In this document: in pieces, positions 2,184 to 7,589 of the stretch | Layout of the letters: each line of letters starts with the position of its first letter | How positions within the stretch are numbered: position 1 is the first letter of the stretch | Virus record (IMG/VR): IMGVR_UViG_2693429549_000013 | Source: a virus | Taxonomy: Duplodnaviria; Heunggongvirae; Uroviricota; Caudoviricetes | Length of the DNA: 11,242 bases | Strand: one strand, 5' to 3' | Translations under genes and position numbers: made by a program | The notes under the pieces: model-generated | The model's input: the letters and a program-made list of their open reading frames with translations, nothing else | The model's database searches: none | Told to the model about the DNA's origin: nothing

Positions 2184-3242
2184 ATGCTTAATACTGTAAA
2201 AATATCCAGTTGTGAGTTAATCAACGCCGACTGCCTGGAATTTATCCGGTCGTTACCCGAAAATTCTGTTGACCTGATAGTCACGGACCCGCCGTACTTT
2301 AAAGTGAAGCCTGAGGGCTGGGATAACCAGTGGAAGGGCGACGATGATTACCTGAAGTGGCTGGACCAGTGTCTGGCGCAGTTCTGGCGGGTGCTGAAAC
2401 CTGCCGGAAGTCTTTACCTGTTCTGTGGTCATCGCCTGGCATCTGATATCGAAATCATGATGCGTGAACGCTTCAGTGTGCTGAACCATATTATCTGGGC
2501 GAAGCCGTCCGGACGCTGGAACGGATGCAACAAGGAAAGCCTGCGGGCGTATTTCCCCGCCACAGAGCGCATTCTGTTCGCGGAACATTATCAGGGGCCG
2601 TATCGTCCGAAAGATGCCGGGTATGCGGCGAAGGGCAGTGCACTGAAACAGCATGTGATGGCCCCGCTGATTTCTTACTTTCGTGATGCGCGAGCTGCCC
2701 TGGGGATAACGGCAAAACAGATTGCAGATGCCACAGGAAAGAAAAACATGGTGTCGCACTGGTTCAGTGCCGGTCAGTGGCAGTTGCCGAATGAAAGCGA
2801 TTATCTGAAATTACAGGCGCTGTTTGCCCGGGTGGCAGAAGAGAAGCATCGGCGTGGTGAACTGGAAAAGCTCCACCACCAGCTGGTGGATACGTATACC
2901 TCACTGAACCGGCAGTATGCGGAGCTGCTGAGTGAATATAAACATCTGCGGCGGTATTTTGGCGTGACGGTGCAGGTGCCGTATACCGATGTGTGGACGC
3001 ATAAACCGGTGCAGTTCTATCCCGGGAAACATCCGTGCGAAAAACCGGCAGAAATGCTGCAGCAGATAATCAGCGCTAGCAGTCGTCCGGGTGACCTGAT
3101 TGCAGATTTTTTCATGGGGTTGGGTTCGACAGTGAAAGCGGCACTGGCGCTCGGGCGTCGTGCAATTGGCGTTGAGCTGGAGACTGAACGTTTTGAGCAG
3201 ACGGTTCGGGAAGTACAGGATTTAGTCAGCCAGAACGGATGA
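2184..3242 (+). CDS. phage orphan DNA methyltransferase (N6-adenine/N4-cytosine, beta-class motif order)
   Basis: 352-aa ORF with the catalytic motif IV DPPY (VTDPPYF) near the N-terminus and the AdoMet-binding motif I (DFFMGLGST) near the C-terminus. No adjacent restriction endonuclease gene. Confidence 0.9.
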   Translation: MLNTVKISSCELINADCLEFIRSLPENSVDLIVTDPPYFKVKPEGWDNQWKGDDDYLKWLDQCLAQFWRVLKPAGSLYLFCGHRLASDIEIMMRERFSVLNHIIWAKPSGRWNGCNKESLRAYFPATERILFAEHYQGPYRPKDAGYAAKGSALKQHVMAPLISYFRDARAALGITAKQIADATGKKNMVSHWFSAGQWQLPNESDYLKLQALFARVAEEKHRRGELEKLHHQLVDTYTSLNRQYAELLSEYKHLRRYFGVTVQVPYTDVWTHKPVQFYPGKHPCEKPAEMLQQIISASSRPGDLIADFFMGLGSTVKAALALGRRAIGVELETERFEQTVREVQDLVSQNG

Positions 3243-3282
3243 TATTGAAGAATTAATTACGCGTCGTTATTATGCGGCTCCC

Positions 3283-3358
3283 GGCCCTTTAGCTCAGTGG
3301 TGAGAGCGAGCGACTCATAATCGCCAGGTCGCTGGTTCAAATCCAGCAAGGGCCACCA
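3283..3358 (+). tRNA. ileZ: tRNA-Ile2-like (anticodon CAT; alternatively tRNA-Met), 76 nt with encoded CCA
   Basis: Cloverleaf folded by hand: acceptor GGCCCTT/AAGGGCC, D-stem GCTC/GAGC, anticodon loop CTCATAA, T-arm GCTGG-TTCAAAT-CCAGC. Closely resembles E. coli ileX-type tRNA as I recall it. Symbol follows Stx-phage 933W naming. Confidence 0.85.
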
Positions 3359-3365
3359 TCACATA

Positions 3366-3442
3366 CCGCCATTAGCTCATCAGGAAAGAGCGCCAGCCTT
3401 CGAAGCTGGCTGCGCGGGGTTCAAGTCCCCGATGGCGGTCCA
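3366..3442 (+). tRNA. argN: tRNA-Arg (anticodon TCG), 77 nt with CCA
   Basis: Acceptor CCGCCAT/ATGGCGG, anticodon stem CCAGC/GCTGG with loop CTTCGAA, T-arm CGGGG-TTCAAGT-CCCCG. Confidence 0.8.
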
Positions 3443-3455
3443 TTATCTGCATCAT

Positions 3456-3532
3456 GCGTTGTTAGCTCAGCCGGACAGAGCAATTGCCTTCTAAGCAATC
3501 GGTCACTGGTTCGAATCCAGTACAGCGCGCCA
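3456..3532 (+). tRNA. argO: tRNA-Arg (anticodon TCT), 77 nt with CCA
   Basis: Acceptor GCGTTGT/ACAGCGC (one G-U pair), anticodon stem ATTGC/GCAAT with loop CTTCTAA, T-arm ACTGG-TTCGAAT-CCAGT. Confidence 0.85.
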
Positions 3533-3642
3533 TATTCATTCTTCCAGATTCCTTCCGGCAGAGCCTTATACTGAAATATACCTGGCTCAGGATATTGTTG
3601 AAAATATTTTATGTTTGTCAAAAATAAAAGTTCTGTTAAGTA

Positions 3643-3996
3643 TTGATTGAGTGTTTGTTATACGGTCTAATGGTTTTTTCAGCATTAAATATTTATCATT
3701 CATATGGTGTGGGTAGAGTGAATATTGATGAGGCGTCGGGGTGTTTCATCCTTAGGCAGCGTATTGATATAGTCAATGCAGCACGAGCAAAGGCCTTCAG
3801 CCGTTTGACAGTTTTGTTCTGTACTCCTGATCGTCTTTCGGGAAGAGACGTTATTATTCTGAATAGTGATGCTATACAGAGGGTTTGCGATGAGTTCATG
3901 GTTGCTAATTCAGAATTATTTGCTCTTGTTCAGGAGTACAACAGAATAGCCAGGACCTGTGGTATGGATGAACTTCGGATTACTCATCTGGGGTAG
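3643..3996 (+). CDS. hypothetical ORF in AT-rich cargo (117 aa; start uncertain, possible GTG at 3718)
   Basis: Open frame only; no convincing ribosome-binding site and no recognisable motifs. Could be non-coding. Confidence 0.2.
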   Translation: MIECLLYGLMVFSALNIYHSYGVGRVNIDEASGCFILRQRIDIVNAARAKAFSRLTVLFCTPDRLSGRDVIILNSDAIQRVCDEFMVANSELFALVQEYNRIARTCGMDELRITHLG

Positions 3997-4200
3997 ATAC
4001 ATATCTGGATTATCACCTGTTACGGTAAAAAGTGATTGCTTACTGTTTTTGTGAATGGCATTGCAGCAGCCGGATAATGTCAGTGCTGGCTGACGGTGTG
4101 CTGGTGGCGGGTGTGGTGGTTGTTGCTTTCCCGTTGCTGAAAAAGAAAACGCCAGACTGTTAGCCGGGTATCAGTTAGCGGGAGAAATTTTTAAATACTT

Positions 4201-4410
4201 CACAATTCAGGCGGTTGACTGTTGTCTGGTTTGCGGGGAGTTTGTTAAAAGAAACTGGCATGGTGAATCCCCCTGTGCGGAGGGGCAATCAGCGAGTAGG
4301 TATATGGGATAATCGCGGATTCAGGTGCTGGTACTGAATTCACCGGGAGGCACCCGGCACCATGCAATGGCACATAGCGCCACTCTCCAGCCCCTCTCCG
4401 GAGGGGCTGT
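4201..4410 (+). ncRNA. structured module copy 1 (candidate small RNA): conserved hairpins plus intrinsic terminator
   Basis: CACAATTCAG..TTGACT.., hairpin CCCCT-gtgcgg-AGGGG, hairpin CCGGG-aggca-CCCGG, terminal hairpin AGCCCCTC-tccg-GAGGGGCT followed by a T-rich tail. About 97% identical to copy 2 by eye. Internal small ORFs are not conserved between copies. Confidence 0.4.
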
Positions 4411-6028: not shown

Positions 6029-6063
6029 CGCTTCAATGGGAAATTGTTGTCGCCATTGTTCGA

Positions 6064-6366
6064 TTAACGCGTATTTTTCAGCGACTCCTGTGCAAAATAC
6101 GCTGTTGCTTTTTTTAATATATCTCGCTCAAGGCGAGCTTCATTTAACGCCTTACGCAGTTGCAGAATTTCAGATTCCAGTTCAGCCACCGTGCGGGAAC
6201 CAGGAGTACCGAGCCCTTTTCTGGCGGCGGTAACCCATTGTCCTAAAGTGCCTTCAGGAAGAGATAATCGGGAAGCGCCTTCACTGATCGAAAGTTGATT
6301 TTCAAGAACCGTTCTGACAGCTTCGGCTTTGAACTCTTTAGAGTAACGTTGGGTTTTTCTGCTCAT
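6064..6366 (-). CDS. IS600 OrfA (helix-turn-helix transposase N-terminal protein)
   Basis: 100-aa ORF typical of IS3-family OrfA, with a leucine-zipper-like C-terminus. Confidence 0.9.
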   Translation of the reverse strand: MSRKTQRYSKEFKAEAVRTVLENQLSISEGASRLSLPEGTLGQWVTAARKGLGTPGSRTVAELESEILQLRKALNEARLERDILKKATAYFAQESLKNTR

Positions 6367-6434
6367 TATTAGCTCCTTCTGATGCCATTCTATTTCAGGA
6401 AGGAGTGTCCGTTAAACTCAGGCTACCTCAAAAA

Positions 6435-7299
6435 GCAGTTCTGGCGGGTGCTGAAACCTGCCGGAAGTCTTTACCTGTTCTGTGGTCATCGCCTGGCATC
6501 TGATATCGAAATCATGATGCGTGAACGCTTCAGTGTGCTGAACCATATTATCTGGGCGAAGCCGTCCGGACGCTGGAACGGATGCAACAAGGAAAGCCTG
6601 CGGGCGTATTTCCCCGCCACAGAGCGCATTCTGTTCGCGGAACATTATCAGGGGCCGTATCGTCCGAAAGATGCCGGGTATGCGGCGAAGGGCAGTGCAC
6701 TGAAACAGCATGTGATGGCCCCGCTGATTTCTTACTTTCGTGATGCGCGAGCTGCCCTGGGGATAACGGCAAAACAGATTGCAGATGCCACAGGAAAGAA
6801 AAACATGGTGTCGCACTGGTTCAGTGCCGGTCAGTGGCAGTTGCCGAATGAAAGCGATTATCTGAAATTACAGGCGCTGTTTGCCCGGGTGGCAGAAGAG
6901 AAGCATCGGCGTGGTGAACTGGAAAAGCTCCACCACCAGCTGGTGGATACGTATACCTCACTGAACCGGCAGTATGCGGAGCTGCTGAGTGAATATAAAC
7001 ATCTGCGGCGGTATTTTGGCGTGACGGTGCAGGTGCCGTATACCGATGTGTGGACGCATAAACCGGTGCAGTTCTATCCCGGGAAACATCCGTGCGAAAA
7101 ACCGGCAGAAATGCTGCAGCAGATAATCAGCGCTAGCAGTCGTCCGGGTGACCTGATTGCAGATTTTTTCATGGGGTTGGGTTCGACAGTGAAAGCGGCA
7201 CTGGCGCTCGGGCGTCGTGCAATTGGCGTTGAGCTGGAGACTGAACGTTTTGAGCAGACGGTTCGGGAAGTACAGGATTTAGTCAGCCAGAACGGATGA
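6435..7299 (+). pseudogene. 5'-truncated second copy of the DNA methyltransferase (lacks codons 1-64 including the DPPY motif)
   Basis: Identical to 2378-3242 of the intact gene. The track ORF 6382-7299 gains a start codon and 18 foreign codons from the IS600 end, giving a possible IS-methyltransferase hybrid ORF. Confidence 0.85.
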
Positions 7300-7339
7300 T
7301 ATTGAAGAATTAATTACGCGTCGTTATTATGCGGCTCCC

Positions 7340-7415
7340 GGCCCTTTAGCTCAGTGGTGAGAGCGAGCGACTCATAATCGCCAGGTCGCTGGTTCAAATC
7401 CAGCAAGGGCCACCA
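7340..7415 (+). tRNA. ileZ: tRNA-Ile2-like (anticodon CAT), second copy
   Basis: Identical to 3283-3358. Confidence 0.85.
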
Positions 7416-7422
7416 TCACATA

Positions 7423-7499
7423 CCGCCATTAGCTCATCAGGAAAGAGCGCCAGCCTTCGAAGCTGGCTGCGCGGGGTTCAAGTCCCCGATGGCGGTCCA
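7423..7499 (+). tRNA. argN: tRNA-Arg (anticodon TCG), second copy
   Basis: Identical to 3366-3442. Confidence 0.8.
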
Positions 7500-7512
7500 T
7501 TATCTGCATCAT

Positions 7513-7589
7513 GCGTTGTTAGCTCAGCCGGACAGAGCAATTGCCTTCTAAGCAATCGGTCACTGGTTCGAATCCAGTACAACGCGCCA
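7513..7589 (+). tRNA. argO: tRNA-Arg (anticodon TCT), second copy; acceptor stem fully Watson-Crick (ACAACGC)
   Basis: Same as 3456-3532 except A at 7582, which converts the G-U pair to A-U. Confidence 0.85.

Follow-up and report, generated by a model that had tools for sequence, protein, structure and literature searches.

A near-perfect methyltransferase and tRNA repeat read as part of a mosaic of two Shigella sonnei lambdoid prophages joined at shared sequences and at IS600

The stretch of 11,242 nucleotides analysed here (hereafter the window), taken from the IMG/VR virus record IMGVR_UViG_2693429549_000013 (Caudoviricetes), carries two directly repeated and nearly indistinguishable copies of a block composed of the 3' part of a DNA methyltransferase (MTase) gene and a cluster of three tRNA genes. 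Judged by sequence comparison, the window is a mosaic of two known defective lambdoid prophages of Shigella sonnei, here called A and B, in the order A, B, A, IS600, B. The repeat would thus be the segment common to two partial lambdoid late regions, derived from these prophages and standing side by side. The first block copy appears as a patch of B alleles in an A-type context, a pattern expected of gene conversion or of a double crossover, and the left edge of the second copy reads as a joint associated with the insertion sequence IS600.

Comparison of the window with itself at an offset of 4057 bp yields 1154 identical positions out of 1155 (2378-3532 against 6435-7589), the only difference being a G at 3525 and an A at 7582, and identity collapses on both sides of the repeat, most positions differing at 2301-2377 and from 3533 on. 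Each copy comprises the 3' 865 bp of the MTase gene and the three tRNA genes, the clusters spanning 3283-3532 and 7340-7589. On the plus strand the genes follow one another in the order RusA, the late antiterminator Q, a tR'-like terminator, a 65-aa open reading frame (ORF), MTase, tRNAs, a variable region termed cargo A and a nanS-p fragment, followed by IS600 on the minus strand, the tetranucleotide AAAA, the truncated MTase (6435-7299), the second set of tRNAs, a terminator hairpin, a second variable region termed cargo Y, an intact nanS-p, a holin gene and a DUF1327 gene. A preliminary description of this DNA, made from its letters alone, had correctly recognised the near-identical repeat of 1155 bp, the position of its single mismatch in the acceptor stem of tRNA-Arg(UCU) as a G-U versus an A-U pair, and the lower identity of the two nanS-p 5' regions, put there at about 90% and measured here at 89% (5030-5169 versus 8555-8694); it had overlooked the complete IS600 (5167-6430) and the four nucleotides which together define the left boundary of copy 2.

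Relative to the diversity of prophages the identity of the two copies is remarkable. The block is widespread in lambdoid prophages, being carried at a coverage of at least 80% by 1752 of 5426 complete Escherichia coli genomes and at up to 13 places per genome, and in principle two unrelated prophages could each have inherited a highly conserved MTase-tRNA block without exchanging it recently. However, its best full-length identity in these 5426 genomes is 97.1%, corresponding to about 33 differences against the one seen here, and for this reason general conservation fails to explain the identity of the copies. Moreover prophage A, which otherwise matches the flanks of copy 1, has no MTase and differs at 34 sites in the tRNA region, such that retention by descent is very unlikely. 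Both copies represent one allele, namely that of S. sonnei prophage B.

The S. sonnei chromosomes were found through look-ups of exact products, and the window was compared per site with complete genomes. In strain 53G (HE616528.1) prophage A lies at ~1.31 Mb and prophage B at ~2.09 Mb, about 780 kb apart and in the same orientation. Prophage A contains RusA (124 aa), Q, tRNAs, the cargo A region, DUF3927, a PmrD-like gene and a nanS-p gene interrupted by IS600 (nanS'::IS600), 1717 of the window being joined directly to the equivalent of 3243 with no MTase module between them. Prophage B contains RusA (126 aa), Q, the 65-aa ORF, MTase, tRNAs of the ileZ/argN/argO type, cargo Y, nanS-p (617 aa), holin and DUF1327. 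The window agrees with A or with B at 99.9-100% identity in each of its segments, the nanS'::IS600 junction included (Table 1), and the suggestion that its two halves derive from different prophages is borne out, 3525-6304 being identical to A and 6435-11242 to B. Two of the switch points fall within sequence common to A and B, that is, in 343 bp of Q (1193-1535) and in 69 bp of tRNA-Arg(UCU) (3456-3524), and the third lies inside the multi-copy IS600. Such switching of blocks of donor markers inside tracts identical in donor and recipient is the behaviour of a recombination patch, and is compatible with an origin either in vivo or in silico.

This pattern bears directly on the notion of a recent duplication or gene conversion, of which the second part agrees with the B-allele patch in its A context, while duplication in its simple form does not stand. 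A recent tandem duplication of a 4057-bp unit, with subsequent divergence or replacement of the remainder, would provide for the direct repeat, its constant spacing and its near-perfect identity, but only 1155 of the 4057 bp are repeated; the rest of the period is unrelated or 89-96% identical, the cargo regions having nothing in common save STnc100 genes (94-96%) and the nanS-p 5' ends reaching 89%. Since each half corresponds at 100% to a different known prophage, this duplication is contradicted by the mosaic pattern and appears highly improbable.

The single mismatch is instructive in the same context. Position 3525 is nucleotide 69 of tRNA-Arg(UCU), which pairs as U4-G69 in copy 1 and as U4-A69 in copy 2. 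Among the fetched loci G at this position accompanies cargo A in 33 of 33 cases and A accompanies cargo Y in 27 of 27, and the difference is accordingly best understood as a marker of the downstream module and not as a mutation acquired after duplication. The sites diagnostic for A and B that flank the invariant part of the gene are, by per-site comparison, the last at 3450-3455 and the next at 3525; and because position 69 co-segregates with the downstream cargo, the crossover would lie inside the tRNA gene (3456-3524) and not exactly at its CCA end, where divergence had initially been thought to start.

The cluster itself is of the ileZ-argN-argO type, with the anticodons CAU, UCG and UCU in this order and with homologues so annotated in Stx2 phages, and it is located between Q/tR' and the nanS-p and lysis genes with variable cargo directly downstream, both in the window and in the Stx2a phage NC_049944.1. 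Homologues of the cluster were found in 289 phage records, mostly of Stx2 phages, and the match to most of these records ends 13-15 nt past the tRNA; the Stx-phage context is that given by the annotation of the records, a look-up of ileZ, argN and argO in the literature having returned nothing useful. In NC_049944.1 stx2A starts 92 nt after argO and is followed by a nanS-p pseudogene. The hairpin that directly follows the tRNAs of copy 2 (GGCTCGCTTTTGCGGGCC and a T run) also occurs in this phage, and copy 1 with its cargo A (3547-3564) is without it. Thus A69 and the terminator hairpin after the tRNA are common to copy 2 and the Stx2a phage, and cargo A replaces both.

The tRNA 3' end is on these grounds a boundary of moron or cargo exchange, at the slot downstream of argO which in Stx2 phages holds stxAB, and no attachment site. 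Of the earlier proposal that this end marks a boundary of either cargo exchange or integration, the first alternative is retained and the second abandoned, there being no integrase and no second partial tRNA repeat. Were cargo A an integrative element targeted to the 3' end of tRNA-Arg(UCU), divergence would be expected to set in at a tRNA 3' end, as it does at many att sites and approximately does here. Yet the sole DDE protein of the window is the IS600 transposase, the 3' 25-mer of the tRNA occurs only in the two tRNA copies even when three mismatches are allowed, the tRNAs are themselves genes of the phage late operon, and other morons, among them stx in Stx2 phages, are found in this very slot; an integrative element is scarcely credible.

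The general organisation is then that of the late-operon moron slot of Stx2 and related lambdoid phages (Q, pR'/tR', ileZ-argN-argO, stxAB, nanS-p, lysis), with the same gene order, a homologous tRNA cluster that is 92-94% identical in most of the Stx2 records listed, variable cargo immediately after argO followed by nanS-p, and in copy 2 the post-tRNA hairpin of Stx2a. In contrast to these phages the window has no stx, its cargo consisting of STnc100 small RNA (sRNA) genes, a PmrD/IraM-like gene and small ORFs; it contains two such regions in tandem, and an MTase module intervenes between tR' and the tRNAs.

Copy 2 begins, on its left, at a boundary of a different kind. The element at 5167-6430 is 99-100% identical to elements annotated as IS600 and has the corresponding organisation, namely 1264 bp, TG...CA ends, imperfect inverted repeats, and orfA (HTH) and orfB (DDE/rve) in a -1 frame arrangement. 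On one side it truncates nanS-p; on the other it meets the equivalent of MTase nucleotide 2378 through AAAA. A 3-bp target duplication as made by IS600 is absent, the flanks being CCC (5164-5166) and AAA (6431-6433), which argues that this IS600 is a joint of recombination or rearrangement and not a simple insertion. The single-nucleotide polymorphism (SNP) at 6305 is A in the window and G in the A-locus copy of the 7 complete genomes checked (7/7), indicating that the window IS600 is a hybrid or a different copy. The AAAA was also considered as derived from an upstream IS600 copy in prophage B, the flank of which matches; this candidate was rejected, as the copy in question is oppositely oriented and carries G at 6305, and the match is probably due to chance. 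The stretches that mark the novel joint are CTCAAAAAGCAGTTC and GGCTACCTCAAAAAGCAGTTCTGG.

The arrangement may have come about in two steps. In the first, A and B would have recombined homologously at two places, the 343-bp tract of Q and the 69-bp body of tRNA-Arg(UCU), and the MTase-tRNA allele of B would thereby have come to lie before cargo A, which would account both for the near-identity of the copies and for the fact that the difference at 3525 travels with the downstream cargo. In the second, recombination within IS600 would have joined the nanS'::IS600 of A to a second IS600 situated beside a 5'-truncated B MTase, giving rise to the tandem arrangement and to the abrupt left edge at 2378/6435; the junction between IS600 and truncated MTase on which this step draws, with its AAAA and no target duplication, is itself unexplained. 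The combination of MTase, tRNAs and cargo A is a natural one in E. coli-type prophages and is arranged in this way also in ST131 loci, and the exact 99-mer of the junction occurs in 9 IMG/VR contigs.

It is also conceivable, although in our estimation unlikely, that the 4057-bp period (truncated MTase, tRNAs, cargo A, nanS', IS600 and AAAA) constitutes an IS600-associated translocatable unit, in the form of a circle or of an amplifiable segment, that entered prophage B by Campbell-type recombination in the 1.15-kb block. Such a unit would have duplicated the phage tRNA set and moved a moron cassette between prophages, with tRNA-Arg(UCU) acting as a recurrent recombination linker for moron exchange.

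Whether by two steps or otherwise, a rearrangement in the cell has to be weighed against the alternative that the window is a chimera of assembly or scaffolding. In this case only separate A and B prophages would exist, perhaps with an IS600-associated variant in part of the population, and the software would have walked through their common sequences (343 bp of Q, 69 bp of tRNA-Arg and the 1264-bp IS600). Several observations weigh against a genuine layout. Of the three A/B switches, one lies in the multi-copy IS600 and the other two where A and B have the same sequence. None of the 25 chromosome-scale S. sonnei assemblies sampled shows the layout, and all 26 contigs read that encode the 57-aa product of nanS'::IS600, 25 of them chromosome-scale, share the nanS'::IS600 junction of the window (26/26) and are of A type, with no MTase upstream and with a 203-aa gene after IS600, just as all displayed places of MTase and of nanS-p are of B type. 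The joint of IS600, AAAA and MTase is absent from the E. coli genomes, the GTDB representatives, the JGI metagenomes, IMG/VR and the 61 loci fetched up to that point, the sequence beginning AAAAGCAGTTCTGG occurring nowhere in IMG/VR as native sequence; furthermore, this joint lacks a target duplication and includes four unexplained nucleotides. If A and B are 780 kb apart and in the same orientation, their fusion in vivo needs a large duplication, transposition of a segment or several steps.

Similar layouts were met only in N-gapped scaffolds from short reads, in which the A and B arms are phased inconsistently and breaks fall at the IS600 SNP. Such discordance is what one would expect of software passing through repeats. 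These are public S. sonnei drafts with related tandem layouts joined by single Ns (the loci L056, L057, L022 and L045). For example, L056 has the b1 left arm with hybrid cargo, L056 and L057 both end exactly before the IS600 SNP at 6305, at which the window has the allele foreign to the A locus, and L058 has the order a1-s1-b2-s2-b3. L022 and L045 were examined as possible triple tandem arrays, an interpretation that was rejected, each consisting of three late-region pieces joined by single Ns. Taken together the inconsistent scaffolds (L056, L057, L022, L045 and L058, from S. sonnei drafts and IMG/VR uncultivated virus genomes, UViGs) suggest a recurrent hotspot of mis-scaffolding in short-read assemblies. 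A look-up of the truncated MTase by exact product, in versions of 305, 283 and 261 aa, returned small draft contigs only, some being N-gapped scaffolds and the others B-type sequences that contain a frameshift or stretches of N; this look-up is a weak one, for PGAP would list such an ORF as a pseudogene with no product.

On the other hand, there is no N in the window, and the joint between IS600, AAAA and MTase (2378) lies outside any repeat, so that the software could hardly have built it without supporting reads. The intact 2377|2378 junction and the truncated one coexist, implying two contexts of the block in the reads. In addition, after the IS600 gap the contig restarts at the equivalent of 2385 or 2393 in two independent draft scaffolds, which is compatible with the reads genuinely forking near 2378. 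An assembly chimera is a serious rival, although the less likely one, and we lean slightly towards an origin in vivo, as a minimum, for the second copy of the block and its IS600 joint, this being somewhat more likely than a purely in silico origin. The exact linear phase displayed in the window may nevertheless be wrong, a point on which we are less certain than in our estimates for origin in vivo or in silico.

All components and processes invoked for the mosaic are already well known, comprising linker mosaicism of lambdoid phages, the moron slot that follows argO, and rearrangement mediated by IS600 in Shigella. According to the modular theory, lambdoid phage modules are exchanged mosaically at conserved linker sequences. 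The A/B switches of the window resemble such exchange in falling within short tracts that are identical between otherwise diverged modules, and differ in that one linker is here the body of a functional tRNA gene and in that the event is inseparable from possible mis-phasing in assembly. McDonough and Butterton reportedly described, in 1999, amplification of an IS600-flanked stx region in Shigella dysenteriae 1. As in IS-mediated rearrangements of this kind in Shigella, an IS600 is found at the novel joint of two phage-derived segments, and the lack of a target duplication agrees with recombination between copies of the IS; unlike in them, the unit of the window has no two flanking IS600 copies, only 1155 bp are repeated, and four nucleotides at one junction are unexplained. 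As regards prophages A and B themselves, in the complete genomes sampled they occupy separate loci, where A has no MTase and another tRNA allele and B has an intact MTase, and both are without the two junctions of the window, b2-tRNA-cargoA and IS600-AAAA-MTase'.

If the layout is real, it doubles the set of three phage tRNA genes next to the slot occupied by the Shiga toxin genes in related phages, adds an MTase fragment predicted to be catalytically dead, and supplies a further example of prophage reshuffling driven by IS elements and homology in Shigella. As an artefact, it would point to a mis-join that recurs in draft assemblies of S. sonnei. In either case caution is advisable, as a near-perfect repeat ending at the CCA of a tRNA mimics integration or duplication and here appears to consist of prophage modules spliced at common sequences and at IS600, and what looks like one mutation between repeat copies can prove to be a linked marker, by which a crossover is located within a tRNA gene.

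Table 1. Segments, genes and junctions of the 11,242-nt window (positions on the plus strand; paired coordinates refer to copies 1 and 2)
Feature	Position	Strand	Basis or remark
Segment matching prophage A	1-1535		Identical to 53G prophage A; B differs at ~66 sites, 428-1192
Segment matching prophage B	1193-3524		Sole exception SNP 1654; A lacks 1718-3242 and has 34 differing sites in 3243-3455
Segment matching prophage A	3525-6304		0 mismatches, nanS'::IS600 junction included
Site differing from A-locus IS600	6305		A versus G
Segment matching prophage B	6435-11242		0 mismatches in 4808 (53G prophage B)
RusA-family resolvase, A-type allele	419-793	+	Pfam PF05866, E=1.8e-16
Q-type late antiterminator, 273 aa	790-1611	+	PF03589 Antiterm on exact product
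Tract identical in A and B, interval holding left A-to-B switch	1193-1535	.	B-specific mismatches end at 1192, A-specific begin at 1536
tR'-like intrinsic terminator, just before MTase module	1692-1711	+	Terminator scan
MTase module: 65-aa ORF (1836-2033) and 352-aa N6/N4 DNA methyltransferase (2184-3242)	1718-3242	+	B-type; PF01555 on exact product
Repeat copy 1	2378-3532	+	MTase codons 66-352 and three tRNA genes
tRNA, anticodon CAU	3283-3358 / 7340-7415	+	ARAGORN and Rfam; tRNA-Ile / ileZ per RefSeq annotation
tRNA-Arg(UCG)	3366-3442 / 7423-7499	+	ARAGORN and Rfam
tRNA-Arg(UCU)	3456-3532 / 7513-7589	+	ARAGORN and Rfam
Invariant tRNA-Arg(UCU) body, interval holding B-to-A switch	3456-3524	+	Six-allele alignment
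Single mismatch G, tRNA position 69, cargo-A-linked marker	3525	+	Fetched loci
Cargo A, moron slot	3533-5039	.	100% identical to S. sonnei prophage A
117-aa ORF in cargo A	3643-3996	+	ORF
STnc100 sRNA in cargo A	4229-4418	+	Rfam RF02076
PmrD/IraM-like gene, 111 aa, in cargo A	4444-4779	-	PF11183
nanS-p 5' fragment, first 127 nt, DUF1737 domain, cut by IS600	5040-5166	+	PF08410
IS600, IS3 family, complete, 1264 bp; orfA 6366-6064, orfB 6028-5210	5167-6430	-	Pfam HTH_Tnp_1 and rve; annotated as IS600 in E. coli hits
AAAA between IS600 end and MTase nt 2378-equivalent	6431-6434	.	Junction in none of the collections searched
Repeat copy 2	6435-7589	+	5'-truncated MTase and tRNAs 7340-7415, 7423-7499, 7513-7589
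Cargo Y with two STnc100 sRNA genes (7666-7855 and 8133-8342)	7590-8564	+	Rfam
Terminator hairpin directly after tRNA cluster, copy 2 only	7604-7621	+	Terminator scan
Intact nanS-p, 617 aa, DUF1737, SASA esterase and DUF6645	8565-10418	+	Pfam on exact product
Lysis cassette start: P21-type holin (10569-10784) and DUF1327 (10789-11103)	10569-11103	+	Pfam scan

Of the genes upstream of the repeat, Q is very widespread as a product, and its look-up was uninformative. An 8-nt difference between the A and B alleles at 1606-1613 probably accounts for the differing lengths at which Q is called (284 aa in A, as against 273 aa for B and the window); the SNP at 1654, by comparison, is private to the window and unlike every A and B locus fetched. 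The 65-aa ORF and the MTase form a discrete indel module of 1525 bp between the tR'-like terminator and the tRNA cluster. The truncated MTase of copy 2 lacks residues 1-65, including the DPPY motif at 35-38, and owing to the loss of this motif is predicted to be inactive.

Within the repeat, just upstream of the first tRNA gene, a sigma-70-like promoter match (TTGAAG-17-TATTAT) is present at 3245-3273 and 7302-7330, as a match to the consensus only. In prophage A of S. sonnei 53G (L003, 11248-11500) ARAGORN calls two tRNAs only, CAU and Arg-UCU, the middle gene at the position of argN being strongly diverged and missed as a tRNA by this program.

The cargo regions A and Y are unrelated except for the STnc100 repeats. 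Of the three STnc100 genes (RF02076) cargo A has one and cargo Y has two; they score 124-161 bits, the gathering score being 47, and a terminator hairpin closes every one of them. Together they explain further internal repeats of the window. A homologue of the gene at 4444-4779 is annotated in E. coli ST131 prophages as the anti-adapter IraM. Finally, some complete S. sonnei genomes (B loci L046-L048, L050 and L053) have one more IS600 within cargo Y, at the equivalent of window position 8034, which is missing from the window and from strain 53G.

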